Origin: Cyanophora paradoxa CCMP329
Lineage: Eukaryota > Plantae > Glaucophyta
DNA: 64,000 nucleotides
Assembly: GCA_004431415.1 (NCBI GenBank)
Contig: QPMI01000513.1
Coordinates: 1 to 64,000, forward strand
Direction: 5' to 3'
Of this stretch, positions 14,581-56,571 are shown one piece after another. The position numbers and the translations under genes were made by a program. Position 1 is the stretch's first letter; each line of letters opens with the position of its first letter. Under the pieces are notes generated by a model. It was not told the DNA's origin, searched no databases, and saw nothing but the letters and a program-made list of their open reading frames with translations.

Positions 14581-16610
14581 ATGCCTCCGAAGCGCCGAGG
14601 CCGCAAGAAGAAGCCAGAGAGCTCGAGCGAGTCAGAGGAAGAGGAGCCCACGTCCCCGTCCTCCGAGTCGGAGGAAGAAGAGGAGGAAGAGGAAGAGGAG
14701 CCGGAGCCTAAGCCGAAGGGCAAGGGCAAGGGGAAGGGAAAGGGAAAGGCAAAGGGAAACGCGCCCGATACCGGCGTGGACGAGCTCGAGACGCCCGTCG
14801 TTGAGATTCCGAAGCGATACGTGCTGGTGCAGGGCGAGGATGGCATATTCCAGCAGCAGAAGAGCATATCCGATTACATCAAGCTCTCGGCCACCAAAGA
14901 AGTTCAGATGCTCCCATCGCTGCTCGATAAATCATACCACGAGCCCGCAACCCTCTGGAGCATCCACAGCGAAATCGAGTACGATAAACTCCCCGAGGAG
15001 CGACTGCGCGCCATACCGCGCACGTACCAGAGCGCGCAGAAATCGCCGCCGATCTGCTACCGCTGCCTTCGCCTCATGTACGAGGCCACGCCCGTGCCGA
15101 GCGCCAAGGGGGCCAACACGCCAGAGAAAATCGCCGCGAGGGAGGCAGCGCAGGCGAGGAAGGATGCCGTGTACGAAGAGTACATTGCAGTCATAGAGAA
15201 GGCAAACGCGTGGGCAGCCAAGCAAAACGGCAAGGGAAAGAAAAAGGGCCAGGAGCCGTACCCCCTCATCAAGGACAAGAAGCCGGCGCAGGTGCCCACG
15301 GTGTCGCCCAGAAACTCGTGGCTCTGCCAGAAGTGCGTCACGCTGCTCGGCAACAAGGGCCTGCTCGTGATCTTGGGCCTGCAGAGGCGAAAGAGGGGCG
15401 ACACGGCCACCGTCTCCAAGCAGACGCGCGACCACATGGTCGAGAGCGTGCTCGGCGGGCCGAAGCCAAAGACCACGAAAAAGGCAAAGGATACGGCCGC
15501 TGACTTCGGATCGTCCGTCATCGAGCCCAACTCCGCACAGTCGAAAATCAGAAAGGCGAAAATCGTGGCGCCGAGCATGGAAGATTTAATGGCAACCTTC
15601 GCGGACGCGCAAGAGGTGAAGCAGAACATAGAGAAGGCGAAAACGGGACTGCAGGCGGCGCAGGCAAACGGGCTGGAGGCGCTCGAGAAGGTGATCACGG
15701 AAATCAGCGAGACGGGGCGGTCGGTCTTCATCCTCAACAAAAAGAATCCCGACGGAAGCACGCGGTACGACATACGACAGGCGCGCCAGTCGCGCTACTG
15801 GGTGCTCTTCAACACACACAAGCGCCTGGGAGAGGCGCGAGAATTCGAGGCGGCGGCGCTGCGCGACAGCCTCGCAGAGGTGCTCTCGGACGCAGAATTC
15901 TACAAGTTCATCCGCTTCAATTTGAAGGAGGAGAACGGCAAGTACAAGGACGACACGTACGCCAACGCAATCATCGGAATTCGCGTGCAAGGGGGCGTGG
16001 AGGTGGGGCCGACGGACGGGGCGCTGCACGCCCACGTGCTGGTGACGATCGATCACATATCGAACCTGCAGGTGCTGTGGGCGAATTACGACTGGGTGGT
16101 GCTGCTCAAGGAGAAGGAGCCGGGCACCACGACGGTGTACGAGCGGCTGCACCAAATTCTGTCCGCGAAATTCACGGCGGCCGGGCAGCGCCTCGTAGAC
16201 CAGAAGAGGCAGAGGCAGGACCTCAGCCGAGCATCGATACGATGGTGGAAATTGCAGAGCTCGAGCGCATGCTGACGGAAGAGAAGATAGGCATGGGGAA
16301 AGATCCGCCCACCGTCCTTGCGTCGCTGATTCCGGAGGAAAATTACGCGAGCAAGCTGCAGGAGTACCTCTCGAAGACGCTGCCCGACAAGCAGAGGCGC
16401 GATTTACTGAAAGAGTGGTCGCACGCGCGAAACACGAACAACACCGACAACAACACGGACGGGTACCTCTTCACGATTTTCCAGGCGGACGCCGGCCAGG
16501 CGGACGACCCCCGCTTTGCGCCGCAGGCCGCGGAAATCGGCGATCTGAGGGCCAGGGGCCGAGGGCGCGGAAAGGGCAAGGGGCGCGGAAGGGGCAGGGG
16601 TAGCGGGTAA
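14581..16610 (+). CDS. HUH endonuclease 2 with acidic/KG-rich N-terminus, Zn finger and RG tail (frameshift near 16200)
   Basis: Motif I SRYWVLFNTH, motif II VEVGPTDGALHAHVLV, motif III LIPEENYASKLQEYLSK in the 16077-16610 frame, which aligns with LLPQSNLKDLLQLYITK of HUH1. Also CYRC...CQKC. Confidence 0.75.
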
Positions 16611-27112: not shown

Positions 27113-27793
27113 ATGACTTCCAACTGGAACCAGACTCTCAAAGGTGATCTGGATGTTGGTACCAACGCCAAGGATTTCGCACGCATCTCCTCTGGCAGCT
27201 ACGTGGACGTCTTCCTGCAGAATCCCGTCGTGATTCAGGCCGTTCAGAACGCCTATGCCACGCCCAAGATTTACTCCTATCAGCTCTTCTTCGACCCTCT
27301 GAGCCTCAGCGCAGAGGTAATCGAGCTGCTGCACGAATCAGGACTCGTGAAAAAGGTGGCACCTGCCACGGCCACTGCCAACGTCTTGCGCTGTCTCGAG
27401 GTCAAGTTCAGGGAGACGGGGTACGGCCCCACCGTGAACCGGTACCCCAGTTCTTCGAATCTTCCGGGTACGGGAACTTACCAGATGAGGGGTACGCTCA
27501 AGGGCGACGTGCTCTTCACGAAATTCAATCCAAGTCCCGCGACCCTGGGGGCCCTCTACACGGGCGGCAACCCACGCGGCTCGACTCTACCCCGCTTCCC
27601 CTTCACCTTTTTCAGGTTCCAGGTCTTCCCCCTCTCCTACGCCGCCGACCAGCCCCACTTCAGCACGGGCGCCAGCCTCTGCGCGGAGCTGCGCGAGTGC
27701 TCGATTTCCTACGCGTACGGCACCGACTGGGACTCTGTGCCTGGGGCCCGCGTCATGAACATCGGTGGCGACATCACCCTCTTTCACGGATAA
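27113..27793 (+). CDS. Hypothetical protein, paralog A
   Basis: Shares QNPV, SGL.KK..P, LE.KF, NPR...PR..FT.F.F and G..L.AEL.E with 27817-28629. Confidence 0.7.
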   Translation: MTSNWNQTLKGDLDVGTNAKDFARISSGSYVDVFLQNPVVIQAVQNAYATPKIYSYQLFFDPLSLSAEVIELLHESGLVKKVAPATATANVLRCLEVKFRETGYGPTVNRYPSSSNLPGTGTYQMRGTLKGDVLFTKFNPSPATLGALYTGGNPRGSTLPRFPFTFFRFQVFPLSYAADQPHFSTGASLCAELRECSISYAYGTDWDSVPGARVMNIGGDITLFHG

Positions 27794-27816
27794 TCTTTCT
27801 CATTTGAGGTCGCAAA

Positions 27817-28629
27817 ATGCCGACCACCTCGGCCACCATCGTGAAGACCGTGTCTGCCGGCTCGATCGTCCCCGATTTCTACGGCAACGCTGGGAACGTG
27901 GCCAACGCAGGGACGGACAAGGTGGAGTGGGACGGAAACTACGCCACCCCGCTCACCGTGAGGGTCCAGAATCCCGTCATGTTGCGCGTCACCTCCAACG
28001 ATTTCGAGAATCCCGCCTCCTGCTCCGTGTACGTGTACTTTGACATCGACTCGGGCGTGAGCGCGGATGAGGCGGAGGCGCTCTGGCTCTCGGGCCTCCT
28101 GAAAAAGATAGAACCCTCTGTGCCTGATCGGCCCGCCATTCGCGTGCTCGAACTCAAGTTCACCGCTAACACCGCCCTCACTCGCAAATTTGCGAATGGT
28201 GCGAATCCGAACATCAAAACGCATTTAGATGGCGCCCTCATCGATGCCACACACAAGACCACGCAGGCCGTTCCCTTTGAGATGTACAACCTCTGGAAGA
28301 TGACCGCAAAGGAGATGATGACGAATGCCACCACGGGCGGCGCCTCGGGTACCGATTATTCATACGGCGCCTCGAATCCCCGTACCCAGGTCTGGCCCCG
28401 GCTCCTCTTCACGAAATTCACTTTCAAATTGTACAACAACATCGCCGGAATGCCTACCTCTGGAATGGTCGTGGGCTCTACCCTCATGGCCGAACTAATT
28501 GAGGCAGAGGCGGACTACACGATTGCGACTACCAACTCGACAGCGCCAGGCGCCGGAGCCGAAGTTTACGTGGCCTGGGAAACGGTCGGTCGCGAGTACG
28601 ACACCAAGATTCACACCACTAGCGTCTAG
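27817..28629 (+). CDS. Hypothetical protein, paralog B
   Basis: Shared motifs as for paralog A; TCTTTCT motif upstream. Confidence 0.7.
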   Translation: MPTTSATIVKTVSAGSIVPDFYGNAGNVANAGTDKVEWDGNYATPLTVRVQNPVMLRVTSNDFENPASCSVYVYFDIDSGVSADEAEALWLSGLLKKIEPSVPDRPAIRVLELKFTANTALTRKFANGANPNIKTHLDGALIDATHKTTQAVPFEMYNLWKMTAKEMMTNATTGGASGTDYSYGASNPRTQVWPRLLFTKFTFKLYNNIAGMPTSGMVVGSTLMAELIEAEADYTIATTNSTAPGAGAEVYVAWETVGREYDTKIHTTSV

Positions 28630-28984
28630 ACTGGCTAAGCTGCATTAGTGCCTGCGCCGCCTCCATCATCTCCGCAATCTCTTCGCTCTTCTCCCGCAGG
28701 CTTGTACCCTCCCTCTTCTTCTTCTGGATCTCCGACATCGATACCCAGCGCAGGTTTTCCCTCCTGTAGTCCAGCGGGTTGCCGTTGATGTGCTCCACGT
28801 ACAGTCCACGTGGCGGCTTCCCGAGGATGAGCTGGGAGAGGTAGTGCTTGCGCCTTCCAAATGTCTTCGTCACCCTGCCCCTGTCCAGTCGCCAGGGAAA
28901 CTCCATCGCACTCCGGGGTACGTCCGAGTTGACCAGGACGTTGTAGGGCAGGTCGCAGGAGTCGGTGCACTTGAGCAGGGCCAT
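28619..28984 (-). CDS. HNH homing-endonuclease-like protein
   Basis: VEHINGNPLDYRRENLRWVS, compared with canonical DHINGN.LDNR..NLR; the substitutions may inactivate it. Confidence 0.75.
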   Translation of the reverse strand: MALLKCTDSCDLPYNVLVNSDVPRSAMEFPWRLDRGRVTKTFGRRKHYLSQLILGKPPRGLYVEHINGNPLDYRRENLRWVSMSEIQKKKREGTSLREKSEEIAEMMEAAQALMQLSQSRR

Positions 28985-29016
28985 TTTGCCCTAGGCTCAG
29001 AAAATGTTCGACCGGG

Positions 29017-29117
29017 GACCTTGGACCTTGGTGCTCGGACCTTGGTGCTTGGTGCTTGGTGCTTGGTGCTTTGGAAGCGTTTCTCTCAGGACCCGGGCCC
29101 AGACTTTCTCCAGGATC
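29017..29117 (-). repeat. Inverted-repeat arm L: (CTTGGTG)n heptamer tract plus ~50-bp unique part
   Basis: Reverse complement matches 29416-29471 plus 54432-54475. Confidence 0.85.
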
Positions 29118-29156
29118 GGAAATTTGTCAGACAAGTCAGGTGAGTTTTTCTACGGA

Positions 29157-29235
29157 CTTTTTTACTCGTAGTCTTTTTTAGTCGTACCACCCCTCATACT
29201 CTTTTTTACTCGTAGTCTTTTTTACTCTTACGACT
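29157..29235 (+). repeat. Iteron-like direct repeats CTTTTTTA(C/G)TCGTA
   Basis: Four imperfect copies inside the IR-bounded non-coding spacer. Confidence 0.7.
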
Positions 29236-29415
29236 TCTCGTACCCTCTGTCTCTTGACATCTCGCTTGAAATCGCTCTCGAAAACTCTGTCGACATTTCA
29301 GACTCTACCTCTCTCGAAATCTCACCTGGAATGTCACCGGAAACGTCGTATGCAAAATGCAGTACCCCTTTCTAAGTCTGCCCGATGGTTAATGACTTGG
29401 CGCGGCAAACTCGCA

Positions 29416-29471
29416 GATCCAGAGAAAGTCTGGACCCAGACTCTGAGAGTAACGCTTCCAAAGCACCAAGC
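29416..29471 (+). repeat. Inverted-repeat arm R (first part; continues at 54426-54475 after the PLV)
   Basis: GATCCAGAGAAAGTCTGGACCCAGACTCTGAGAGTAACGCTTCCAAAGCACCAAGC is the imperfect reverse complement of 29061-29117. Confidence 0.85.
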
Positions 29472-30338
29472 GCTCGCTTGGGGGTAGCCCCCACCAATTG
29501 CGCGACCTTCCCGCGACCATTTTCAATAAGCACATTTTCAGCATCACGAATCTCAGTCACAAAATCACAAATTCGCACTGAGCCACATTGTATTTTTCAA
29601 ACATCTAACCCTTCCTTACTGAAACCAATCACGAAACCCTTTCATTCTTCATTTTTCTAATTCCTTACCATTCCCAGTAAGCCCTTTAACTTTCCCCGAT
29701 CTCTCAGTAAGGACAGTAAGACCCTCATTTTTACGAAATGTTCCCGATCGTTTCCGGACTGTTTTCAGTTACCCAAATTGAAAAATCAAGGTGAGCCCAC
29801 CAATTAAACAAGTGATCCCCACTTAAAGCAGTTAATATACTGTAACAATGGCAAGCAATCAAGTAAATTTACCTGAGAGTAAGCGGTGCAATGTTTGCGA
29901 TAAGGTAAAACCGGCATCGAGTTATGCATTGCAAAAGCGTAGCTCAGGGAATGTACTTTTGAATTGGAGATGCAAAGACTGCGACCGAGAGTATCACAAT
30001 TACCTTTATCATTGTGTGTTAAAAACGCGTCCGAAGATCGAAGTACAATCGAAGATATGCTCGCACTGCAAGATTGAGAAGCTTGCAAGTGAGTTTAATA
30101 AAAGACAAAGAACGAAGGATGGTCTCAACTACCAATGCCGAGAGTGTTATAGCAAAACACGTAAGAGTTAAACCGAATTTCATTTTATATTTTTTAAAGC
30201 AAGTTTGTGCATGAGCAAGCATGCCGAAAATGCCCACCTGCACAAACTTGCGAGATCAAGGTAAGCCCCACCGACAAAGTACGACGATAGACCACGTTAA
30301 AATAAACTCGCGCCCCGCCCACTATGCAAGATACATGC
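29472..30338 (+). repeat. Left terminal inverted repeat (867 bp)
   Basis: Reverse complement of 53557-54425; the only differences noticed are two C-run length changes. Confidence 0.97.
29848..30171 (+). CDS. TIR-encoded protein with two CxxC...CxxC zinc-binding repeats
   Basis: KRCNVC...CKDC and KICSHC...KDGLNYQCREC; identical copy at 53724-54047. Confidence 0.7.
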   Translation: MASNQVNLPESKRCNVCDKVKPASSYALQKRSSGNVLLNWRCKDCDREYHNYLYHCVLKTRPKIEVQSKICSHCKIEKLASEFNKRQRTKDGLNYQCRECYSKTRKS

Positions 30339-30388
30339 AAACAACATGCGAGATACATATATAAATTGTTTTTCTCTTCCTATAATAA

Positions 30389-31198
30389 ATGAAGACTCAC
30401 TTTTACCATAAATATACCGGCAACAAGTATAATGAAATGAATACGATCTATCCATATATCGATTTAGAAGGAATTAATAAAGTTATAGAACCGTTTTGTG
30501 GTTCAGGTGCTTGTAGTTTCTATCTTTGGGAAAAGCATAAAGACCGGTTTGATTATTATATGAATGATAACGACGAAACCCATACCCTTTTTTTGAATAC
30601 AATGAAAGACCCAGACAATAAAGTTAAACTCTTAGAGAGTCTTAAACAGTTCGAAGCAGTTAGCAATATAGAAGAGCACAAAGAAGTCTATAAGAAGTTT
30701 CTACAACATGATCGTAAAGATGCAATGGATTACTTAGCTCACCATTTCTATCTTCTTAAAAACAGCATTTTAAATGTTAAAACCCTCCGTGATTTCAAAA
30801 AACGAAACGTAAAGGTGAGTCCATATACAACTCTTAAAAATAAGATACCTTACGATGATTTCATAAAAGAAGTCAACCTATCCCATGGGGATTTTCGCGA
30901 TATCTTAGCGAAATATAGAGATGACGAAGCGGCTTTTATATTTCTCGATCCTCCATACGTAAACAGCAATAATGACTTTTACGAAAATGTAGAATTCGAT
31001 TTAGAAACCTTCTTTTTGGATTTGGAAGACCTATTTAAGACAGCGAAATGCAAGGTTATGATGGTTGTAAATGATGCTCTTTTAATGAAACTACTATTTA
31101 AACCCTATATTCGCCATACGTATGGCAAAGTGTATGGTATGACAAAAAAGAAAAGAAACCATCTCATTATGACTAACTATGAACTTGGTGAAAAATAG
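30389..31198 (+). CDS. DNA N6-adenine methyltransferase, Dam/D12 class
   Basis: Motif I IEPFCGSGA and motif IV FIFLDPPY. Confidence 0.92.
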   Translation: MKTHFYHKYTGNKYNEMNTIYPYIDLEGINKVIEPFCGSGACSFYLWEKHKDRFDYYMNDNDETHTLFLNTMKDPDNKVKLLESLKQFEAVSNIEEHKEVYKKFLQHDRKDAMDYLAHHFYLLKNSILNVKTLRDFKKRNVKVSPYTTLKNKIPYDDFIKEVNLSHGDFRDILAKYRDDEAAFIFLDPPYVNSNNDFYENVEFDLETFFLDLEDLFKTAKCKVMMVVNDALLMKLLFKPYIRHTYGKVYGMTKKKRNHLIMTNYELGEK

Positions 31199-31229
31199 AG
31201 TAATTAAAATATTTGTTAAATAATTAATA

Positions 31230-31622
31230 ATGGATTCCCGATACCGCGGCTACCACGTTATGCTCGACTATATAACCGACCCGTTTACTGAGTCCCCGGA
31301 GGCATGCGCCGAGTGGATCACAGCGAACCTATCGCAATATATCACAGATCGCAATATGCGCATCGTGCACCAGCACACATGCATTTTCGATGGCTCTATT
31401 TCCCCTCCCGGTTTCGCGATTGGCTTTCTATTAGATGAGTCGCATGCCACAGCTCACTCTTATAGCGACCAGGGGCTATTAGCGATCGATATCTTTACAT
31501 GCGGCTCAAATGCCGAAGCGAAGACAATGGGTATAGCACAGGACATTAACGATCTCATACAGGAAAGGCTGAAAGTGCGAAAGTGGGACTTACAGGTCGA
31601 GCAAAGGTTCCCAATTTCATAA
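31230..31622 (+). CDS. speD: S-adenosylmethionine decarboxylase proenzyme (prokaryotic class 1B type)
   Basis: LLDESHATAHSY self-cleavage ES site and AIDIFTCG. Confidence 0.9.
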   Translation: MDSRYRGYHVMLDYITDPFTESPEACAEWITANLSQYITDRNMRIVHQHTCIFDGSISPPGFAIGFLLDESHATAHSYSDQGLLAIDIFTCGSNAEAKTMGIAQDINDLIQERLKVRKWDLQVEQRFPIS

Positions 31623-31647
31623 AAAATGAAAAAAACGACAGATATAT

Positions 31648-31962
31648 TTAATGCTCCTTGATCGGAAACTTGCCCATTAGCGGGTGATCGAGACCCATGA
31701 CATACCAGGATTTCATAACGGGATCCCAGCGGGCTTTCTCAGCCTTCGCTTGATCCTTAAATTCATAAGGAATATCGAGGTAAACCTTCAAGTTTCTTTG
31801 ATACACTTGCTCATAGCTTAGAGTCTTGAACTGAGAGCATAGAGAGTGATCTTTCTTCGTGACATACCAGCATGAATTCTCACGATCCCACTTTCCACCG
31901 AGGGATTTCGCAACGTCTTTTTTATCAAACGGAATATCCACGAAATGCTTTTCACCCTCCAT
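31648..31962 (-). CDS. Tandem DUF5710-like domain protein
   Basis: Two copies of DIP(F/Y)..KD.AK....WD.....WYV. Confidence 0.75.
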   Translation of the reverse strand: MEGEKHFVDIPFDKKDVAKSLGGKWDRENSCWYVTKKDHSLCSQFKTLSYEQVYQRNLKVYLDIPYEFKDQAKAEKARWDPVMKSWYVMGLDHPLMGKFPIKEH

Positions 31963-32001
31963 CTCTTTTATATTTACCGGAGAAAATAATTTCGGGGTTT
32001 G

Positions 32002-33381
32002 TTATGAACGAGAAGACCGAAGAATGCGCGTAGTAGGGGCTGTGTAGCTTGCGCTCTGATTCTTGAATGATTTATACCACCGCTGACTGTTTACCTCTGA
32101 GAGCTTCTCAGTGCCGGCAATCGTTAATTTCGCGAGCTCTCTAAGCGCCCTCTTAGTCTTCTCCGCGCGATCTTCCAATAATGCGCCTTTCGGAACACTT
32201 GCGGCGACATCTATGCCTTCTTTTTGAACCTGCCGGATAGAAGCGGCTTCCATTTCGGCTGCTTTGATTGCGTTGCCTGATGGTTCCACCACAGCTTCGA
32301 CCTCTGTAATGATCTGCAATTCGTGCGGCTTAAAAAGCTTCGGCATTACGTTCCCCGCTGCATCTTGCACCTCTATCGCGTTTCCTCTCCTTCCCGCAAT
32401 TTTGTAGACCTCTCTGCTATACCTTTGTGTTGCTCCTTTATCAAACTTTGATCTCGGCAATAATACACGGACGTGGAGACCCGGCTTAAAGTCGCTGAAT
32501 ATATCCTTTACGATTGTGTTCTTCTTTGAAATAATAGCCGCTCGGATCCGCTCCATATCAGAAAGCTTAACATCTGCGGGTTTCATTCCTATGGTTCTGT
32601 GAATGGTGTTATTATAATTGAAAACGAAGTCGTCCAATTTGTCCATGAATCGAACTGTATTATAAGCGACACAGTAATTGTTTATCATCGTTTTTAAGGT
32701 CAAATGAAAGCGATTCATTATTCCAGAGAAGTGTGATCTCCGACCTGTTTAAAGCGGTGTTCTATTCCATTATTTTTAACGACCTCCTGAAACTCCTTCG
32801 CGATGAATTCCGAACCGTTATCTGTCTCCAATCGAATCATCGGAGCCGGGAGCTCTGTGAGCATCTCCGCAAAAGCGGCGGCAACACTTGCGCCCTCCTT
32901 ATTCTTTAACTTCTTGGCATATGCTTTTCGGCTTGTCATCTCGATGAGAGTAAGGACTGCAATGTAGCCGGAATTATAATTGCCATATGAGAGATAAAAG
33001 ATGAGATCCGCTTGATAGCACCACGGCGGGGCTGTGATGGGAATAAAAGCTGTTTGGGTCGGTGCTGGGGCTTCTTGTTGATCTGCATAAATTCTTGTTT
33101 CGCTGCGACATCTTGCACTTCTTTCAATGTGAGGCTCTTGTCCTCTTTTCTCAGCTCTTCGTACAATGCCGATGGGTTCTTAAAACCTGTCTTTGGGTCA
33201 TACATGCGGCGCACGATCTTAGAGGACGGGTTAGCAATGCTAAAAGGAACATCTCCTAATAAATTTGATTTTGCTTGGCGTTTTGTGATTTTTTGGGGAC
33301 TTGCTCAGTTTCAGGAACCGCGATAGGTAGTATGGTGGTCTCTGTCTCCTCGCCCGCTACCCTTCTAACGATCCGTGACAT
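32002..33381 (-). CDS. Retroviral-like (rve) integrase, three single-base frameshifts
   Basis: YDPKTGF N-domain; YQADL (D1), ETDNGSEF (D2), HTSL(G)IMNRFHLTLK, YNNTIHRTIGMKP and FDKG...YSREVY. Shifts at about 33290, 33040 and 32722 fall in short base runs. Confidence 0.88.
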
Positions 33382-33399
33382 TCTTCTAATTAAACCTGT

Positions 33400-36300
33400 T
33401 TATTTTTTGCTGCAATTGCACCCGTGATGCACGAGCTGGCAATTGTCTTTAAGATGTGGGCGCCTGTTGTTTATGCGATCCACGACGAGCTTGTAATTCG
33501 GATCTTGTGGCTCAGTCGGAATAGGAAGGGAACAGAGCGCACAGGCGCCCTTCTGTTGCTTCTTGCGCTCTAATATCCACTCCGGCGTAATATAATCCGC
33601 CTCATCGAAATCGCGCCCGGCACGCTGATCCTGGCATTTGTAACCGCGGATCTTCCCTTTCAGATACTCGATGTAGTCACTCTTTCCTTGGAACTTGTGA
33701 ATCGGTGTATAAATCAGCACAGTAGACAGATCGCGGTTACGAGTGAGCGCGGTATAGAACCATTCGCGAGTGGTATAGCGGAACGTAGCCTCACAAATGA
33801 CAATGCCCGAATCAAGTGTGAGACCTTGCGTTGAATGACCTGTTCCTGCATAAGGGAGAGAAAAATGTTCTAACATCGCGCACGGAACCTCAAACGTGAC
33901 ACCATCGAAAACGTCCGTTAATGTGACCATTTGCTTTGTGATTTTGGTGATTCGATAGGTGTAATTCGTGTATGCGTTTATAGACTCGCCCTCAGACCGC
34001 GAAATGCGTAGATACTTGCGGCAAACGACTTCCAAACCCTTGTAGAATTTGATGCCATTGACCTCTACGGTTGGGATATTTACTTTGCGTCTATCGTGCA
34101 TCAGTTTGTTGTAGGCTAAGGTCATTTCGTTTCTGTAAGCGATGCCAAAGTAGCCGTCGGGAATAGCGCTTAGATCATTAATTGTCGGCAACCCGTATTT
34201 CGAGATAATCTGTGCGGCTTCCAGTCCGTTCTCGAAGAGATCCTCTTTAATCGCCCGAATTAATTCACGGTCTGTCTCCTTCTTGTGCCGCTTGTTATTG
34301 CGTAGACTCAGAACGTTAGGGAACATACTCTGCACCGCGCGCTTATAGTAGCCCTTGCGATCAGAAACCGAGAGCTCGTCATTAATTGGTTCATTTTGAT
34401 AGGTGTCGCCATTAGCCAAATATTTGATATCCGGATAGCGATCGATAAACGACTTGATCTTAGCGAGATCTTTTACGGAATACGCGAATATCTCGTCGAA
34501 CATAATGTGACTGAACTCGGAGACGAACGCCCTCTGGTCTTTTTCGCTCATAGCCTCTTCGTAGGTCTGATCATTTGAGACACGGATCCCGAGAACATTA
34601 TATAAAGTACGAACGGTAATATTCTCGATTCCGCGGACTTTGAGAGAGTCCCTCAGCTCCGCGCACTGTTTGTTATAGGGGCAAATAACTAAGCAATTCG
34701 ACTTTTGAGATGCGAAACAGTTAATACCGAGTGTCGACTTTCCACTTCCGGGCATGTCAGCAAGGACAAGCATACGATTATGGAGCTTCGCAACCCAATT
34801 AAAGCACTCCGGATTAAATTCGTCCCTCAGCGAGAACCGGTTAATGAGTGTCTCGGGATCCTGAAATTCGAGAGTTACACCCCGCGGTGGGCGGAGTGCA
34901 TTCTCAGGGCATCTTTTCCCGGGAATATAGCTGAATTTGCCCATGTTCTCAAACGCATTTCGGTCGAACTCTTTCTTACTTGTCCATGAACCTTCGATAT
35001 ATAGGCAATCCGTTCTGATTCCGGCAACCTTGTGCCCGCGCGCTGTCAGGCGCTTGTATTGCGCAAACATATTAGCACGGTTGCGATCGTAAATATGAAA
35101 GTGGATAGGAAGGAATCCGTTAACGAGCTCGCGGTGGGAGCTGATCTTAACGAAATAGATGTGACCTTCGAATTCGCTAAGAGTTTTGACACGTTTCGAA
35201 TTCTTAGGATTGAAAGTAAACACCTCTACTGTTCCTCCGCATTCTTGGGCGAACCTCTCAGCCTCGGCACGGTTGTAGAACATTTTCGTGGATGTTTGCG
35301 AGTCTTGGAATTTGCCGAGCATTCCGATCTCTTTCACTAAAATGTGCTTCTTATCTGTGGTTTGAATGTCACTTGAAAGTACTTTCTTCATCTCCGAGAT
35401 CGACGTATTGGGCACCAAATGCGAAGGCTCCGCGACCGCGATAATCTCTATCTTGTCCTTTACGTCCGCCCAGTGCATGGAGAGAGTGTAGCCTGTCATG
35501 AAATTATAACAGCGACCACTCACGGAAAATGCGCGATCCAGAATAATTTCGATTCCATCAATCTTGCGAGACATGGCGGCATCATAATCTACATCCTCAT
35601 CGTCGGCGAAAGTCGCTTGCTCTCTCTCAAACGCAACGACACGCACGTAGTAGATCGCGTATTCGAGAATATCGCTTCCCGCTTTAAAGGGAACGAAGTC
35701 ATCAAACACATTGTATTTCGGAAGATATTGCATGCCTTTCAGTATCGAAGGGTAGCACTTCGCCATATCGACAGCTGTGTAGGTGGCTTTCGGGTTCGGC
35801 TTATAGAAAAAGCCACTTAGTGCGGATCGCTTGTAGTGCGTGAGAATTTCGCGCATGTTCGGGCTGTAATGTGAGATATTCGTCGCATTTAGAAGCGACT
35901 CCCGGAATCCCTTCCCGATTTCACAGACCTTATTATAATACTCCTCTGTTTCGAAATCTTGCTCAATAAAGTGGTCTGTTGTGCGTGGATCTTTGATAGA
36001 GAACATCGAGCCATTGGCTTTGAATGTGATGCTGTCGATCTGTTTCGATGGTGTTAGCTTCACAGCGGGCTCATATCGCATTTTCAGGAACGTAAATAGA
36101 AGACCTTCCAGACCTTCGCGCCCAGTATAAAGAATGCGGATGAAACTGCGCTCGTCGGGCGATAGTTTAAGTTGCGTGATCTTTAACAAATCCTTGGATG
36201 TGTGCGCGAAGATATCGTGAGTAAGACACGTCGGAATTTTATAGAGTGCTAACGAAGAGGTCGACTTAGGAACATGATTATCGAGCTCTTCGACCTCCAT

Positions 36301-37716
36301 CTTCGCCATGCGCATTTCGAGCGACTTGATGTTATCGTTGAATATATAGATGTGCTTGTTGTGAATCATAAAGTGAATATTGCGGGGAAAGATGTTTTTG
36401 TTAATTGATTCCGCCGCGAATTTGTGTATTAACTTTCCGTCGACATCAAAGACGCGGAAGCCTGTCTGAATTCTCTTACAGAATTTCTCGATATGGCGGA
36501 GGGTGAGAGCCAGAGAGTCGCCAGGTGTGCGTTCGCGACCGTGAAAGAATTTATAGAGACCGTCGTAGGACATAGTTAAGTCAGTATATCGCGGTTTTGG
36601 CGCGTCCTGACACTTCTTAATGGACGCTCCCCATGTGGAGATGATCATATCGTATCCGCAAGCGTTAGATGTAGATGATTTGGGAAGCTCAATAACATCT
36701 TCGAACTCAGACGCGTTTGGATTTAATGTGTAGTCTGTGAATTTGCTCATAATCGCGGTGCATCGCATGCTGTCCGTAAGCTCCTCATCCAGAAACGCAT
36801 AGCGATTGCCAGGGATAGCACCGGCTCCGTCATCTTCGACACCTTCGTCCCCATCGATCACGACCTCATGAACAGTTATAAAGGCATCATCGATACTGCC
36901 GCCAAGATCACCAAATATTAGGCTTAGTCTTTTCTGTTCCTCGGTTGGTGGTGTCTTATAGAAGAACATCTCGTATGCTTGTCCGAATGTTTCGAGATAT
37001 ATAGCCAATTCATCGTAGTTTTTGAGTAAATAGAAGATTGATTCGCTCTCATGCCAATCATGACGAACTTGACCCGGTCTAATTATAATTTGAGACATTC
37101 TATCCATTTTCGCCAGAGCAAAGCTTCGCAACACACTCACCGAAACTGTCTCTCTTATCTTGCGGTAGGTGACAAAGGTTCTGTCTGGCATATTTAATTC
37201 GGGAATTCCGGGAATAACAAATACCTCCGACGACCGAGCACCGGATCCAGGTCCCCATAGATTGAACGTAATTGTTGCGAGAGTTTCCGGATCGTATGCG
37301 GCGATTGGATCGAGAATAGTGCGTTTAATCGCATCCTCTACCGCTTTTAGTTTACCTCTCTGCTGCTTCGCTTCGAGTTTCGCTTCTTTCGCCCGTTTCT
37401 GTTCTTGCTTGCGATCGAAACGCTGTAAACGCTTAGCCTCTTGTTCTTTTTGCTTTTGCTTTTCTATATTAACTTGGGTGCGAGCGGCGCGCTTCTCTTT
37501 CCGCTCTGCCCTGCGGAAAACGCGGGGATTAATGATTCCATTCAGAGTGTCCCGAATGTCGATCAGCGTTTGGAGCTTGGGCTTCCGATTCATTGTGTTG
37601 TGCATCGCCCAATGCGCCTGTTCTTCGGTTAGCAAATCCTGACTCAATCCCTGCATAATGTATCCGATAATTTCGTCCCGAACATTGTTAGCGATTCTGT
37701 TGGTTGCGCGCGGCAT
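33400..37716 (-). CDS. Protein-primed family B DNA polymerase fused to SF1 (Pif1/RecD-like) helicase and C-terminal HNH
   Basis: PolB: AVDMAKCYPS, KHILVKEIGMLGK, IRTDCLY. Helicase: MPGSGKST, FDEIF, GDTYQ, HSTQGLT, YTALTR. HNH: CALC...DRINNRRPHLKDNCQLVHHGCN. Confidence 0.88.
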   Translation of the reverse strand: MPRATNRIANNVRDEIIGYIMQGLSQDLLTEEQAHWAMHNTMNRKPKLQTLIDIRDTLNGIINPRVFRRAERKEKRAARTQVNIEKQKQKEQEAKRLQRFDRKQEQKRAKEAKLEAKQQRGKLKAVEDAIKRTILDPIAAYDPETLATITFNLWGPGSGARSSEVFVIPGIPELNMPDRTFVTYRKIRETVSVSVLRSFALAKMDRMSQIIIRPGQVRHDWHESESIFYLLKNYDELAIYLETFGQAYEMFFYKTPPTEEQKRLSLIFGDLGGSIDDAFITVHEVVIDGDEGVEDDGAGAIPGNRYAFLDEELTDSMRCTAIMSKFTDYTLNPNASEFEDVIELPKSSTSNACGYDMIISTWGASIKKCQDAPKPRYTDLTMSYDGLYKFFHGRERTPGDSLALTLRHIEKFCKRIQTGFRVFDVDGKLIHKFAAESINKNIFPRNIHFMIHNKHIYIFNDNIKSLEMRMAKMEVEELDNHVPKSTSSLALYKIPTCLTHDIFAHTSKDLLKITQLKLSPDERSFIRILYTGREGLEGLLFTFLKMRYEPAVKLTPSKQIDSITFKANGSMFSIKDPRTTDHFIEQDFETEEYYNKVCEIGKGFRESLLNATNISHYSPNMREILTHYKRSALSGFFYKPNPKATYTAVDMAKCYPSILKGMQYLPKYNVFDDFVPFKAGSDILEYAIYYVRVVAFEREQATFADDEDVDYDAAMSRKIDGIEIILDRAFSVSGRCYNFMTGYTLSMHWADVKDKIEIIAVAEPSHLVPNTSISEMKKVLSSDIQTTDKKHILVKEIGMLGKFQDSQTSTKMFYNRAEAERFAQECGGTVEVFTFNPKNSKRVKTLSEFEGHIYFVKISSHRELVNGFLPIHFHIYDRNRANMFAQYKRLTARGHKVAGIRTDCLYIEGSWTSKKEFDRNAFENMGKFSYIPGKRCPENALRPPRGVTLEFQDPETLINRFSLRDEFNPECFNWVAKLHNRMLVLADMPGSGKSTLGINCFASQKSNCLVICPYNKQCAELRDSLKVRGIENITVRTLYNVLGIRVSNDQTYEEAMSEKDQRAFVSEFSHIMFDEIFAYSVKDLAKIKSFIDRYPDIKYLANGDTYQNEPINDELSVSDRKGYYKRAVQSMFPNVLSLRNNKRHKKETDRELIRAIKEDLFENGLEAAQIISKYGLPTINDLSAIPDGYFGIAYRNEMTLAYNKLMHDRRKVNIPTVEVNGIKFYKGLEVVCRKYLRISRSEGESINAYTNYTYRITKITKQMVTLTDVFDGVTFEVPCAMLEHFSLPYAGTGHSTQGLTLDSGIVICEATFRYTTREWFYTALTRNRDLSTVLIYTPIHKFQGKSDYIEYLKGKIRGYKCQDQRAGRDFDEADYITPEWILERKKQQKGACALCSLPIPTEPQDPNYKLVVDRINNRRPHLKDNCQLVHHGCNCSKK

Positions 37717-37885
37717 CTCTATTAGTTCTTTTAAAATAACCGGAGAAAATAATTTCGGCGCAATCTACCAAATTCTCCTTTTCATACCCTTGTCGCCAAT
37801 TCTTTAAGTGCTTTTTTGACGGATGCGGGGAATAAAAAGAGAGTTAAAAAATTAATCATTTTTTGCATCGTGCGGATACTTTCCG

Positions 37886-38299
37886 CTACGAAGTTTTTGC
37901 GTTCTCGACGACATGCTTTCGGGGTCTTCCAGCGGGCTTTTGCGGCTGGGGCTTCACCGGCGGATTCAGCTTTCGTTCCGCTCTTTTCCTTCGTTGGTAT
38001 TCACGTGCCTTCTCTCGGATTTTCTCCCGATACTCTTCATCGTCTTGGTATCGCTGCTGTTTACGAATTGCAATCTTTTGTAGCTGTTCCGGGGTGAATA
38101 TCGTAGCCTCTCCGGCGGCTAATCGCTCCTGTTTCTGTCTCTGATGCTTGTTTCGCTGCCGCTCGGCGTCTTTTTCGCGTTTTAATCTTAATCTCTCCGC
38201 CTTCTCCTCTTCTGAAATCACCTTTTTCGGTCGCCCGGGTCTGCGCTTTTCCTGCTGTGCCGCCATCGCCTCTTGGTTTGAAATCTTGGGTTTCGCCAT
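37886..38299 (-). CDS. Basic DNA-binding protein with two AT-hook-like motifs
   Basis: RRPGRPKK and AGRPRK flank an R/K/E/Q coiled coil; TATTTTCTCCGG upstream. Confidence 0.7.
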   Translation of the reverse strand: MAKPKISNQEAMAAQQEKRRPGRPKKVISEEEKAERLRLKREKDAERQRNKHQRQKQERLAAGEATIFTPEQLQKIAIRKQQRYQDDEEYREKIREKAREYQRRKRAERKLNPPVKPQPQKPAGRPRKHVVENAKTS

Positions 38300-38423
38300 T
38301 TACTATAACCGGAGAAAATAGTTTTTTGTCACTCTGTATTATTTCCCTTGCCCTTAAATACCTTTTACCGAAACCTTCAATTTTTGCCCTTGGCTCGATA
38401 CAAGCGCCACCGAAATTCACCGC

Positions 38424-38864
38424 TCAATAACCGTTCCAGACGGTTCTTTCTTGTTGCTGAGGATATACATAAGGTTGCTGAGGATAAACATAAGGGTTCG
38501 TTACATTTTCATCGTCGCCTAATGCCATTTGATCCAATCTATACATCGGATAAGGGGAGTCAGCGCGCAAATGACCTTCTACAAACTCAGGACATGAGCG
38601 CCTTCTAATATGCTCTACATGCACGTCCTCTATCTGAGCGGTTTCGATATTGGAACTCATAGCCGCGGTCACAGGCGAGGGCGATCGAGATCGTGGGTGG
38701 TTGTGATTGTCGCTGTGGTTAGAATATACAGAAAGGCGCCTACCTCCATTATCCTCGCCATCTGATATTTCGATTTCTACGGTTGTGTCACAGCATGGAC
38801 TGTGGCAATTAGACACGACATGAAGCTGAAACATCTCAATGCATTGTGTGATGAAATTCATCAA
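38424..38864 (-). CDS. Hypothetical protein
   Basis: 146-aa ORF with a PYVYPQQ duplication; TATTTTCT upstream. Confidence 0.5.
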   Translation of the reverse strand: MMNFITQCIEMFQLHVVSNCHSPCCDTTVEIEISDGEDNGGRRLSVYSNHSDNHNHPRSRSPSPVTAAMSSNIETAQIEDVHVEHIRRRSCPEFVEGHLRADSPYPMYRLDQMALGDDENVTNPYVYPQQPYVYPQQQERTVWNGY

Positions 38865-39065
38865 TCCTACAATTGGACAACGTATTAAATATGTGAGAAA
38901 ATAAAAGGGAATGAGGCTATTGCTTGCTCGTGTGTTTCCTTATGAGTTGGTCGATCTTATAATGCTGTTTACAGAACCCACATGCCCGTTTTGCAAGGGA
39001 GTCCACATAAAGACCCGCTCTAAATACGGGCGGGTTCAGCTTTGCCTTGCGGATATTCACAGTCA

Positions 39066-39749
39066 TTAGCGGATATGGCGTTTACCACCGAGCATTGCGG
39101 CATAATTCACGGGTGCGGTCGGCACAATATGTGCATATTGCGGGGCAACCGATTGCTGTCGAGTTACGGCTTGCGCATCTGTCTTTTCCTCCTTTTTAAT
39201 CTCCTCTACGTCAACTTTTTGCTTTAATCCGAGTTTGGAGATCTCTTTCTTCACGAGCCCCTTTAATTTCTTGCGTTCGTTATAATCTTGCATCCATTTC
39301 TCGTAGTTAGAGACTTTCGTTTCAAGGTCTCGCACTTTCTCTTCGAAGCTCATGACAACGTCGACAGGAACCGTGTGTTTTTGATAGGATCCGCGCTTTT
39401 TAAGCTCGGTTTCGGCGGCTTTCGGGACGTCTTGCGTTTTGTGTTGGCTTGCAACAACTTGCGCTTTTAGTACTTTGTCGGTTGCTTCATCAACAGAGCC
39501 GCCTCCAATCTGTGGTTTTACAGTAGCTAAATCGTCCATTTGGCGTTTACCGCTATCTTGGTTTCCCTTGTCCGCGGTGGCACTCGCAATAATCGCCTCT
39601 TGCTTGGCGACCTCCTCTGGCGAAGTGTCTATAAGATATTCGGGCATTTCGAGACCGCCACCCGACGTTAACCCAGACTCTTCAAGTCCGCGATTAGGAT
39701 TACCAGAAGCGACAGTTTGAATGGTTTGAGGCTTCTTTCGGTAGACCAT
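39066..39749 (-). CDS. Hypothetical coiled-coil protein
   Basis: 227-aa ORF directly downstream of the ATPase. Confidence 0.6.
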   Translation of the reverse strand: MVYRKKPQTIQTVASGNPNRGLEESGLTSGGGLEMPEYLIDTSPEEVAKQEAIIASATADKGNQDSGKRQMDDLATVKPQIGGGSVDEATDKVLKAQVVASQHKTQDVPKAAETELKKRGSYQKHTVPVDVVMSFEEKVRDLETKVSNYEKWMQDYNERKKLKGLVKKEISKLGLKQKVDVEEIKKEEKTDAQAVTRQQSVAPQYAHIVPTAPVNYAAMLGGKRHIR

Positions 39750-39751
39750 GA

Positions 39752-40618
39752 TTATCTTCTCTTACATTTGATTAACATTTTCTTTTTCTTAGGCGAAATT
39801 TGCGAAAGTTTGGGGATACCTTCAAGCTCACGCTCAAATTTGGATAAAGTTTTGCATACAGTTGTCGAATCTTTGACAGGCGGCGGTTTTGATGCTTGCT
39901 CTTCTTGTTGTTTGCGCTTCTTTTCTTCAAAAGCCGCCCGCTTGTGGAATTTAGTAAACGGATGTTCATCGATCATATCGGCTTTTTCGACCCACCATCG
40001 CACAGAATACCCCGTATTATCGTGAATGATCGCTTGGTAGCTATGACAGAATTCTTGGAACATGCGCTTGAAACTCTCTTTATCCATGTTCCCGAACTCT
40101 TCGTGATATGCTTCAAACTCTCGCATGTTTGACCAGCTTAGGAATATGATATACTCCGCATTGCTGCGAATGATCGTTGAAAGCTTTGTTAGTTTCTGCG
40201 ATATTAGAGCCACGGAACAAAACGTATGACGACCTTGCGCCATCAATTTATTTAGCAAATGATCGCGCGAAAGATCGATAGTTCCGGACTCCAAACAATC
40301 GTCGAGCACGATGAGAATATTCTTTGGTTTCTTACCCGCAATGATGGCTTTTTTGCGGGCTTCTATGATCGACTCTACATATTCCGGTTTCCAGGTGTCA
40401 TGCACTTCGTCTGTAATTTGTCCCCAGAAACCGTTGAAACTCGTTGGACAAAAGACCAGAACGTATGAGATCTGGTCTTCGAGTTCTTTGATCAGCCACT
40501 TTAAGAATACCGATTTACCACAATTGGTTTTCGCCAATAGGAGAAATCGTGCGGGAAGTTTCACCCTCTGTTTCGGGTTCCATTCTTCGAGATCTATGGG
40601 CGTCGTCCCTTTTTGCAT
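39752..40618 (-). CDS. A32-like packaging ATPase (PLV)
   Basis: Walker A AKTNCGKS, Walker B LIVLDDC, QGRH, ISQ, IRSNA. Probable start MQKG at 40618 after TATTTTTCT. Confidence 0.92.
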   Translation of the reverse strand: MQKGTTPIDLEEWNPKQRVKLPARFLLLAKTNCGKSVFLKWLIKELEDQISYVLVFCPTSFNGFWGQITDEVHDTWKPEYVESIIEARKKAIIAGKKPKNILIVLDDCLESGTIDLSRDHLLNKLMAQGRHTFCSVALISQKLTKLSTIIRSNAEYIIFLSWSNMREFEAYHEEFGNMDKESFKRMFQEFCHSYQAIIHDNTGYSVRWWVEKADMIDEHPFTKFHKRAAFEEKKRKQQEEQASKPPPVKDSTTVCKTLSKFERELEGIPKLSQISPKKKKMLIKCKRR

Positions 40619-40676
40619 TCTTTCACTATAAAAACAATAGAAAAATAAGACTGACTGTGGTAATCGCACGAATTCC

Positions 40677-41990
40677 TCATGAAGATACTCTGCGAATACC
40701 ATCAGCTCCGATTATCATGATATTGTGAGCGAGGGCAATGCACTGAATTTGCATCTTCTGATAAGCGGCACCCGCATACCACTCCTCATTACCGACTCCA
40801 CCGGCTGTGACACCATTGAATTCGAAGACCAGATCGAACGCCGATGTGCCTGTGGCATCGATGTAGCCCGTGTTCTCTTGGTTGAGAAGCGACGCCTTTC
40901 CGTTTCCAGCACCGAAGTAAATGCCAGTGAGAGCGGGGTAGCTTGTGCTCTCGGTAAAGATCGCCGAATTATATTTATCTTGAAGTTCGGTCGCGGCAAT
41001 CATGAGAGGAAGCGAAGTATTCGAGTAAAGGCGGTTATTGTTGAGTTCCACATAGAAGTTCACAGCGTTGGTTCGGAGTGCACGAGGAGCCAGAACCGAG
41101 AGAGTTCCGTTGTTCACCTTCGTCTTCGCGTTTTGGCGCACAGAGAATACGAGAGTGTGGATGAGACCCGCACCTGTGAGTTGCGAGAGATTGACTCGCG
41201 AACCGGAGGCGGTCGGCTGGAAATCTGTGTGTAGGAAACCGATTTCGTTGTAGGGGATCGCGATGCCAGTCGATTTAACACGGGCAATGGTCTCAGATAC
41301 AACCGCCTCATCGGCATTTACGACCTTGCAGATAATGCGGGGTTTCAGCACTTGAAGGGAAGCACCACTGTTTACGACCGAAATATTGCCAACATTGTTT
41401 ACATCCTCAATGATACCATCACCAATCGCCTTGAATTCGATTTCGACCACGATCTCAGAGTTCAGAGCGCAAAGTGGGAACATCGCCTTCTCGAAAGGAG
41501 AGGGTAAATCGATTTCGTAGGTTCCACCGACAGTGTTACCAGCGGTTCCGACAAGACCACCCACATAGCGAAGTTTCTTATCGAGTTCGCCCTGTTCGGT
41601 CATCAGTAGAAAATACTGAGTGACGAAATCCTCTGGGACAACGTAGCGGAATGAAGCGTGAGAGATTTCGATGCGCTTAATCAGCGATCCAATAACGCGA
41701 AGGTAGCCAGTGGTTGCAGCAACCCCATTCGTAAGATCAGTGAGGGTGATTGGGTTAAGATCGAGTTGCAGCGCGAGACCATTCAGGAAATGGTAGCGGG
41801 GGATTTTGAAGACAACTCGGTTGCCGAGAGCGCTGGGTGGCTCAGTGTCGGGGGCGACCAGAACTCGAAGTGGCTTAGTGCCAGAGGACGTTCCAATGAC
41901 CAGCGACTTGTTTAGGAAATAATCCTTGTAGTCATCGGTGGTGAGCATAGATTTCAGCGTTGGGCGCTGGAATTGGCTGTTAGTCTCCAT
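40677..41990 (-). CDS. Major capsid protein (PLV-type double jelly-roll)
   Basis: 437 aa, beta-rich, VVFKIP...SLIKRIEI...FPL.AL...I.VEIEF pattern; lies between the ATPase and the pentons. Confidence 0.75.
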   Translation of the reverse strand: METNSQFQRPTLKSMLTTDDYKDYFLNKSLVIGTSSGTKPLRVLVAPDTEPPSALGNRVVFKIPRYHFLNGLALQLDLNPITLTDLTNGVAATTGYLRVIGSLIKRIEISHASFRYVVPEDFVTQYFLLMTEQGELDKKLRYVGGLVGTAGNTVGGTYEIDLPSPFEKAMFPLCALNSEIVVEIEFKAIGDGIIEDVNNVGNISVVNSGASLQVLKPRIICKVVNADEAVVSETIARVKSTGIAIPYNEIGFLHTDFQPTASGSRVNLSQLTGAGLIHTLVFSVRQNAKTKVNNGTLSVLAPRALRTNAVNFYVELNNNRLYSNTSLPLMIAATELQDKYNSAIFTESTSYPALTGIYFGAGNGKASLLNQENTGYIDATGTSAFDLVFEFNGVTAGGVGNEEWYAGAAYQKMQIQCIALAHNIMIIGADGIRRVSS

Positions 41991-42037
41991 GAGCGTTTCT
42001 TCTCTTATCTTTGGGATCAGAAAATAATTTAAAGGGC

Positions 42038-42964
42038 TTAGTAGAAATTCATTTCGGGCGGTGCGTCGTAGGTTTCGATCTCAAAAGTGAAATAATGCGC
42101 CCAAACCCCGAAATCTAAGAGAGCGCCATCATGGTCGATGAGTTTAATCGTCAAGCGGTCGAACGATTTTAATTCGCGGAATTCTCGAATGAGAGGCACC
42201 GTAGTGGACGTGTCGAAGTGGTAGATATCACCATGTTCGAGTTCCTGTGGGATTGGAATGCGCATGAAATAACCATCGACGTGCTTGTTGACTGAGCGAA
42301 TAAACGGCGCAAATTCGTCAATATATAGCCAGATCATCGCCGCCGGGGTCTCATCTCCACGAGTATAGCCGCGAATGCGCCGATTGAGTGTCACAGTTCC
42401 CGTCCCAGGATTGAATACAAGGAATGTATCGCTTGCAAAAGGGGTAAATGTCTCGTAAACATATAGTTGAATTTCTTTGAAACCGAATATTGCGAGTTTC
42501 TTAGCGATTGCTTTGCGGTTACTGGATTTTCTGAGTGTGGCTTCGGAAGCCTGAGAGAACTTGAACCAAAAGTTACTATCACTGAAAAACTCATAGATCT
42601 TTGAAGTAGTATTATAGCGGCATTTAATATATTTTCCACCGAAATCTGAAAGGCGAGCTGCTTCGAGTCTTTCTGTGACTTTTGCGGCAAGGTCGTCTTT
42701 GGTGTAAAATCCTTTGGGAATTGTGATGGTCACGAATCCGGAATCCGAAGCTGTGACCGAGAAATAGAGTTCCATGCGCTCGATGGTTGCACCAGTGGCG
42801 TCTATATCGTTTGTCACGGTCGAAAGAACATTGGGAACCGTTGCCTGCACCAGGCGCACCGATTTTACGTTGTCATAGCGACGGGGTAATGTCACTACAT
42901 ACTGGTTTGGCTGAGTAAACTCCTCATCGCGATCATCGCTCGAAAAGCTCAGGTATTCTTTCAT
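42038..42964 (-). CDS. Minor capsid (penton) protein 1
   Basis: SFSSDDRD...YVVTLPRRYDNVKSVRL...VPN, IPKGFY, LYIDEF, LTIKLIDHDG...FTFEIE. Confidence 0.8.
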   Translation of the reverse strand: MKEYLSFSSDDRDEEFTQPNQYVVTLPRRYDNVKSVRLVQATVPNVLSTVTNDIDATGATIERMELYFSVTASDSGFVTITIPKGFYTKDDLAAKVTERLEAARLSDFGGKYIKCRYNTTSKIYEFFSDSNFWFKFSQASEATLRKSSNRKAIAKKLAIFGFKEIQLYVYETFTPFASDTFLVFNPGTGTVTLNRRIRGYTRGDETPAAMIWLYIDEFAPFIRSVNKHVDGYFMRIPIPQELEHGDIYHFDTSTTVPLIREFRELKSFDRLTIKLIDHDGALLDFGVWAHYFTFEIETYDAPPEMNFY

Positions 42965-42980
42965 CTTACTATAATAGATT

Positions 42981-43826: not shown

Positions 43827-43832
43827 GCGCTG

Positions 43833-45326: not shown

Positions 45327-45369
45327 TATCTTATATACTTCTTATATATCTTCTTTGTTTATAAAGAGG

Positions 45370-52180: not shown

Positions 52181-52200
52181 TAATAAAGAACAATCAAAAG

Positions 52201-53163: not shown

Positions 53164-53197
53164 AAATTTAATCTCCTGTTCATTTAAAAGCCAAACA

Positions 53198-56534: not shown

Positions 56535-56571
56535 TTGAGCTTTCCCCTCCCTCCGAAAATTTCCCCGCTTT

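Follow-up and report, generated by a model that had tools for sequence, protein, structure and literature searches.

Mriyaviruses (Mriyaviricetes) are described with a gene set that includes a capsid protein, VLTF3 and an HUH endonuclease, with a doubled HUH gene in the proposed Gamadviridae, and HUH-dependent initiation of rolling-circle replication was proposed for them (PMC11253617). Genes for integration were reported absent from mriyaviruses (10.64898/2026.06.19.733378), and Phaglo-G was reported to have short tandem repeats on its flanks (10.1101/2022.07.28.501842). From a glaucophyte assembly, a region related to mriyaviruses has been published before (10.1101/2025.04.19.649669). In the pMV158 Rep origin 7-bp repeats lie beside the nick hairpin, together with 11-bp binding repeats (PMC10288648), and the AAV ITR holds the elements RBE and trs (PMC11760972). 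Within the main texts covered by our literature search, with subscription papers mostly outside it, no origin, cis-element or proviral end of a mriyavirus is described; the main text of PMC10120064 mentions neither Cyanophora nor dwarf viruses. The case for rolling-circle replication in mriyaviruses depends on a predicted enzyme, and the same texts describe no way in which these viruses enter genomes without an integrase.

The outer virus and its HUH endonucleases

The window, i.e., the whole stretch of 64,000 nucleotides of Cyanophora paradoxa DNA that was analysed, held a GC-rich virus from position 1 to about 57030, a lower-GC insert within it (29472-54425) and intron-rich host DNA beyond. 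Without the insert, a polinton-like virus (PLV), 32,072 bp of the outer virus were seen, its left end lying outside the window; the mriyavirus criterion on genome size is 35-45 kb. The features are collected in Table 1. A double jelly-roll capsid protein as in Mriyaviricetes was encoded (Atlas matches of 0.98 to Nucleocytoviricota capsid clusters, with a recognition value below the tool's strong threshold), together with the VLTF3 of that class (Pox_VLTF3, E 2.4e-24), an HUH endonuclease with its motifs II and III and a DUF5767 gene (Pfam). For the A32 packaging ATPase a Walker A motif was visible in a broken frame at 10.5-11.9 kb, while the scanned frame had no Pfam match. No Pfam match to a helicase, RuvC, VLTF2, a DNA polymerase or an integrase was obtained for the outer-virus ORFs within the window (32,072 bp). 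Because capsid, VLTF3 and two HUH genes, beside a putative, frame-broken ATPase, match the described gene set, the outer virus looks like a mriyavirus that is multicopy in C. paradoxa, a likeness by gene set and not by placement in a tree. The doubled HUH gene suggests likeness, again not placement, to the proposed Gamadviridae.

The second, long HUH gene lies beside the short one in the layout of PEV2 genes 10 and 11, and the two adjacent products are related (BLASTP E 3e-8, 26 % over 108 aa). HAH and YxxK were present in all six aligned sequences. The structure model (pLDDT 56) matched the folds of TnpA (Z 7.5, rmsd 2.9, 104 aligned; a further match at 6.8), parvovirus NS1 (5.5) and SIRV1 ORF119 (5.1). 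Since all fold matches lie below Z 8, the HUH call rests on the motifs. Neither a sequence search for solved structures nor Foldseek against the PDB at E 0.001 gave a match. Foldseek against BFVD gave one strong unnamed match (793 aa, E 2.8e-9), a candidate only, which by its length could correspond to half of a long HUH protein of the PEV type.

The frame of gene X was broken by single-base indels in G runs that were not found in the read contigs, thus these breaks are likely assembly errors and the viral genes in the window may be more intact than they look. Further frame breaks occurred at 2010-2114, 10500-11900, 16250 and 32000-33300. Just before the start of gene X lie a pyrimidine tract and AG, like the end of a spliceosomal intron. 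Viral marker genes were present on at least 76 named contigs (gene X on 52, capsid on 27, HUH on 25). EukProt entries accounted for 15 of 17 HUH clusters, the largest labelled Cyanophora paradoxa, and entries with the same naming style for all 15 capsid clusters and all 29 gene X clusters. Among the viral, metagenome and genome contig collections no relatives outside the host were confirmed. Twenty-four heptamer matches in viral contigs were dropped, as the 50 bases on each side lacked the unique part of the arms described below. An unrelated viral contig (IMGVR_UViG_3300020201_000022) carried heptamer tracts in opposite orientations on both sides of a small gene, with no likeness to the arms.

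Table 1. Position, strand and characteristics of features in the 64-kb window
Feature	Position	Strand	Characteristics
Major capsid protein, Nucleocytoviricota type	5232..6602	-	Capsid_N, E 3.4e-8
HUH endonuclease, short	13715..14557	+	HUH and YxxK motifs; fold nearest IS200/IS605 TnpA
HUH endonuclease, long	14581..16610	+	C-terminal HUH domain; frame change near 16250
Genes W and Y	27113..28629	+	left synteny markers
HNH endonuclease gene	28619..28984	-	start 30 bp outside L
Left arm (L)	29014..29117	-	eight heptamer-type units (CCAAG plus two bases, minus-strand reading); about 50-bp unique part on core side
Core	29118..29415		298 bp, 55.7 % AT; plus strand pyrimidine-rich; no long ORF, no palindrome
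TCAGGTG inverted pair flanking the iterons	29130..29335		29130-29148 and 29317-29335
Iterons	29157..29244	+	four 14-bp copies at 29157, 29173, 29201 and 29217; 44-bp tandem pair
Right arm (R1), inner part	29416..29471	+	last 6 bp (29466-29471) are the first target-duplication copy
Polinton-like virus	29472..54425		869-bp TIRs (99.8 %), rve integrase, A32 ATPase, methyltransferase, patatin, fibre-like genes
R1, outer heptamer tract and second target-duplication copy	54426..54475	+	
Hairpin just beyond R1, 3' of gene X	54478..54502		8-bp stem
Gene X	54534..55585	-	one gene of about 351 aa; breaks at single-base indels in G runs
Optional low-copy cassette	55983..56543	-	183-aa ORF; depth 124-136 against thousands on either side
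Third arm (R3)	56572..56651	+	oriented as R1; unique part of another type
Terminal 380 bp of outer virus	56652..57032		8-bp-stem hairpin 56933-56953; likely right end at 57026-57032, then single-copy host DNA

Structure of the non-coding region

An earlier note on this DNA had described imperfect inverted arms of about 100 bp, each composed of a heptamer tract and a unique part, and this description held. With the target duplication counted once, left (29014-29117) and right arm (29416-29471 plus 54432-54475) were identical in 93 of 105 aligned columns, the 10 gap positions being one heptamer and three single bases. The alignment score of 65 compares with a maximum of 32 among 2000 shuffles. 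In the unique parts 42 of 49 positions agreed, and the arm-to-arm DNA fold had a z of -7.0. Neither a direct repeat nor a target duplication was found at the arm tips.

The core ranked first in AT content among the 630 windows of 298 bp of the outer virus within the 64 kb. Compared with its own complement it scored 22, a value equalled by 346 of 500 shuffles, hence it is no palindrome. It contained no perfect stem of at least 8 bp with a short loop and no short hairpin with a recognisable nick motif. Four iterons had been claimed for the core; three of them (29157, 29173, 29201) fit the proposed pattern exactly, while the fourth (29217) has one mismatch. None of 300 shuffles gave more than two copies, so none reached three. 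Inside the tandem pair the iterons are spaced by 16 bp. Two copies of TCTCGAAA, also put forward as a signal, are a chance event, as 261 of 1000 shuffles hold some 8-mer twice. TCAGGTGA was present as claimed and has an inverted partner at 29317-29335, but the motif is not specific to the site: in the outer virus, where about 3.8 occurrences of TCAGGTG or its complement are expected, there were 13, of which 11 lay outside long ORFs. It is likely a viral promoter or autoregulatory motif. Intergenic clusters of it lie at 640-1950, including an inverted pair at 950-969, and at 13600-13640, shortly upstream of the HUH genes. On a rough ORF map the region is the largest non-coding gap of the outer virus (589 of about 5,100 non-coding bases). 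Rfam had no match anywhere in the 64-kb window. The hairpin just beyond R1 is possibly the transcript end signal of gene X. Repeated intergenic blocks were seen at 1-45 and 855-920 and at 55825-55950; the stretch 855-880 has a weak likeness to the unique part of the arms (score 30, near background).

The third arm and the probable right end of the provirus

Absent from the earlier note was a third arm, R3, with 66 of 80 positions identical to the left and 61 of 75 to the right arm. L and R1 agree at three diagnostic sites where R3 differs. The ORF of the cassette that adjoins R3 had no Pfam match, and other copies carry different DNA here (run X16); the HNH gene beside L may be a similar variable slot.

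Each junction region was compared with contigs from 4 of the 24 public sequencing runs listed, five different runs being used in total. Single viral contigs had depths of 3,900-5,100, and depths in the thousands persisted to bin 56953-57111. From 57003 on, one contig of 7.3 kb followed the window with zero differences at a depth of 73.5 (run X1) or 74.9 (X2), and 31-base words placed the last shared base at about 57032. Because the depth falls there from thousands to 74, the right end likely lies near 57030: the integrated outer virus would end at 57026-57032, about 380 bp past R3 and 2.6 kb past the inverted-repeat region. The ratio of viral to flanking depth was 55-90 and alike in both runs, a rough guide since depth does not equal copy number. 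R3 itself was rejected as the very end of the virus, with depth in the thousands for 380 bp further. Two short repeats which the terminal piece has in common with the region upstream of gene X fit a viral origin of this piece. Its hairpin (56933-56953) lies about 75 bp inside the border, and a TA run was seen at the border. A transposon spanning L to R3 was likewise rejected, as gene X, which would lie inside it, is again found beside gene Y in other copies, and in collinear order with HUH. No integrase was seen in the 32 kb of outer virus within the 64-kb window. Together with the sharp end this suggests an HUH-driven integration of the outer virus.

The region in other copies

Synteny was read from the gene numbers of the host annotation. 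Of 13 named contigs, 12 had genes Y and X at a distance of 1-3 gene models, and for the thirteenth no X was listed. HUH and X were 6-13 gene models apart on 15 of the 17 contigs with both, the exceptions being tig443 and tig57, and on 5 of 7 contigs capsid, HUH and X were collinear with the window. With these spacings a PLV would not fit, thus nearly all annotated copies have the interval at an internal place and free of the PLV. Two separate copies appear to be present on tig57. On EukProt tig00000443 gene X is placed beyond the capsid gene; this could be a head-to-tail tandem or a permuted copy, either one of interest for rolling-circle integration.

The comparison with other copies that the earlier note had called for found the region in their major lineage. 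This read lineage retains both 29157-29186 and 29297-29470; the stretch between the two has 126 letters where the window has 110, one iteron period more. Its depth was 3,200 in X1 and 3,661 in X2; it was also found in X15 and not listed for X4, hence in three of four runs. Past 29470 it continues with further heptamers and not with the PLV (X15). A host MITE dispersed in the genome, the other possibility raised in that note, is argued against, because the depth of the region (1,628-7,270 in X1 and X2) does not exceed that of the viral genes; in the bin of the left heptamer tract coverage came from the minor lineage only, so the depth argument is less well tested there. Differences and loose ends of read contigs were taken from among the matches listed and are part of the total variation.

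The unit CCAAGTC is absent from all three arms of the window. In other copies it was read on both sides of the region: on the left in X2, in a loose end before 29096, and on the right in X15, in a loose end that follows 29470. The last residues of P0059 (a gene Y model beside gene X) form a 7-residue repeat, present twice, for which CCAAGTC is the only possible coding unit; ahead of it stands NSSQV, where R1 of the window reads NASKA. This exon presumably belongs to R1 and not to R3, and the two arms of the second type were read in separate runs. L and R1 appear to change together across copies; should this co-change be real, complementarity is being maintained between L and R1 but not with R3. 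At 29096, inside the small GC palindrome of the left arm, two contigs change partner (record 6 of X1 ends, a contig of X2 begins), a possible recombination point.

The inserted polinton-like virus

The insert has the TIRs of an rve-type PLV, a 6-bp target duplication (CCAAGC at 29466-29471 and 54426-54431), an rve integrase gene (32002-33300, frameshifted, E 2.3e-14) and an A32 ATPase gene (Pox_A32, E 1.8e-10). ORF 40677-41990 had no Pfam match, and ORF 33400-37716 had weak helicase matches below the cut-off. The cargo (30389-31622, 43833-53163) comprised a D12 adenine methyltransferase, an S-adenosylmethionine decarboxylase and a patatin. Fibre-like, repeat-rich genes contained C1q domains and, by a weak Pfam match, an H-lectin domain; a Cyanophora PLV with an H-lectin fibre has already been noted (PMC12220804). 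A zinc-finger-like ORF was present in both TIRs.

As claimed in the earlier note, the PLV splits the right arm in its heptamer tract and spares all genes; one copy of CCAAGC lies on each side of it. The left junction is not a long-read artefact, because a short-read contig matched 29200-29500 without differences. In X1 this junction contig had a depth of 322, about 4.4 times that of the unique flank, and entered the PLV without a branch. The TIRs had depths of about 7,700-8,400, and PLV ends were also joined to two other, unrelated flanks (X15, X16). In the simplest reading there appears to have been one PLV insertion, after which the composite was copied about four times, either by viral mobility or by host duplication. 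The insertion itself is ordinary, apart from this sign of later copying.

A targeted insertion, with the heptamer tract recognised by the PLV as a means of riding on or disabling the outer virus, is highly improbable. PLV tip and target have CCCCAAGC in common, the site is gene-free, and PLVs are known parasites of Nucleocytoviricota (10.64898/2026.06.19.733378). However, the two other flanks are unrelated DNA, the TIR depth far exceeds the 322 at the junction, and the spacing of HUH and X leaves no PLV-sized gap in other annotated copies, tig443 and tig57 excepted. The region is therefore not supported as the target of the PLV. The multiplied look of the junction haplotype speaks against targeting or disabling, and its depth against the earlier idea of a block to the outer virus. 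Likely the PLV landed once by chance, without targeting. Its survival here needs no special cause, because this is the largest gene-free gap of the virus.

Function of the region

We tentatively read the region as a candidate internal HUH/Rep double-strand origin of a mriyavirus-like endogenous virus, with slightly less than an even chance of being right. Iterated sites and an AT-rich segment, as in HUH double-strand origins, were both found. The reading is supported by the arms and their fold, the iterons, the first rank in AT content, the size of the gap and two HUH genes in cis, further by the conservation in place and the apparent co-change of the arms. The HUH protein would bind the heptamer arrays on both arms, and the AT-rich iteron core would melt or load a second protein. 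By folding back or extrusion the complementary arms would expose a nick site in single-stranded form close to an arm, and the nick would start rolling-circle copying. The arms would stay alike within a lineage because they pair or because one is copied from the other, and R3, close to the integrated end, would be this binding array in a terminal role. The rve integrase of the PLV likely placed it once in the largest gene-free gap, and the composite was likely copied a few times later. Against an origin count the core without a short nick hairpin of recognisable motif, the TCAGGTG motif common to other viral intergenic regions, and the position of the region upstream of the HNH gene as well. 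Heptamer arrays alone do not define an origin, because R3 is without a core. The left 5-10 kb or so of the virus lie outside the window and may hold a better candidate. A strand-skew switch had been suggested as a check; the cumulative skews do not turn at the region, which is uninformative because skews are gene-driven here. A sigma-70 promoter scan is inapplicable to a nuclear virus.

The simple form of a junction of fused ends, the alternative in the earlier note, is not supported, as the core is no palindrome, the two flanks are different genes and the virus appears to end 2.6 kb rightward; a tip-to-tip palindrome between the arms was not found. The junction idea survives in an unfolded form, in which the provirus would integrate via its far ends and, once circularised, would be cut at the internal site, whose resolution would give both termini of the DNA that is packaged. 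Models for this are the cos site of lambda inside the prophage and an arm-loop-arm unit of the AAV type; poxvirus junctions and hairpin terminators are further comparisons. From inside outward, the arm order of unique stem, short-repeat array and altered last units resembles the loop, RBE array and trs of the AAV ITR. Hairpin copying would be expected to yield arms that co-vary, as these appear to do. The change of partner in two separate contigs falls at one and the same position (29096), and many mriyavirus contigs are circular (PMC11253617, PMC13768754). The 300-bp core without a palindrome does not fit, however, and no copy was seen ending at the site. Twelve of 13 contigs run through it, and there was no strand-change joint among the 7 joints listed, which also bears on an invertible core; these are contigs, not raw reads, and contigs cannot show molecule ends. 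We regard this reading as unlikely. No more probable is a wider scheme, in which a giant-virus relative would persist as an integrase-free HUH provirus: the internal arm-core-arm unit would be nicked and resolved AAV-like into packaged ends, the R3 array would direct a Helitron-like integration, the two HUH paralogues would divide these jobs, and the 25-kb PLV would ride in the origin and be copied along.

Quite unlikely is a block of transcription control, with the HNH promoter on the left, the 3' end signal of gene X on the right and repeats bound by a host or viral factor. The HNH start codon 30 bp from L, the TCAGGTG clusters in other intergenic regions, the hairpin after R1 and the position of R3 upstream of the optional gene would suit it. 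Yet L and R3 are oppositely oriented relative to the genes beside them, symmetric arms over 500 bp are more than one small gene needs, and the other intergenic regions are without heptamer arrays and iterons. A small non-autonomous transposon (MITE), inserted in an ancestor of the copies and fixed, with R3 as a remnant, is very unlikely. A non-coding element of about 500 bp with terminal inverted repeats and short internal repeats is what the region offers, and one contig has a left-type arm followed by different DNA (X16), but the arm tips lack the target duplication, the region is no deeper than the viral genes, and arms changing together are unexpected of a dead insert.

The region is a real feature and, judged by its sequence, a good candidate for an origin in a virus class without a described one. 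It also points to a more surprising matter, a sharp-ended multicopy provirus in which no integrase was seen. For both questions, that of the origin and that of entry, a direct test is within reach: the alga can be cultured, and the locus provides a defined substrate of 500 bp, its natural variants among dozens of copies, the two HUH genes and one end of the provirus.

Comparison with known systems

The pMV158 family of rolling-circle plasmids has an origin (nic and bind) with the same kind of 7-bp tandem repeats, longer iterons and an HUH Rep gene product (PMC10288648), whereas here two symmetric 100-bp arms enclose a 300-bp core in a nuclear dsDNA virus, and no short nick hairpin was found. 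The AAV ITR (RBE, trs) has the same arm-loop-arm order, a short-repeat array in each arm and a virus-encoded HUH nickase (PMC11760972). In contrast, the unit described here is internal in a provirus, its 300-bp loop is AT-rich and not self-complementary, and its repeats are heptamers, not tetramers. With the HUH transposons (Helitron, IS91, IS200/IS605, Replitron) the virus has in common collinear integrated copies, a hairpin near the end and an HUH fold nearest TnpA (Z 7.5 and 6.8), but it is a capsid-encoding virus of at least 32 kb, the left end, target site and any duplication of which lie outside the sequence seen. The PLV agrees with described rve-type PLVs with 6-bp duplications in TIRs, duplication and integrase (PMC12220804); it differs in being nested in a mriyavirus provirus, while that report describes retrotransposons nested in PLVs. 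Another near system is Mriyaviricetes and the proposed Gamadviridae (Pleurochrysis endemic viruses, Phaglo-G), with the same capsid type, VLTF3, adjacent short and long HUH genes and an endogenous state in an alga (PMC11253617). The long HUH protein has about 700 aa here versus about 1,570 in PEV2. Although no integration genes are reported for the class, the genes of the C. paradoxa virus occur on at least 76 named contigs, and one copy is sharp-ended.
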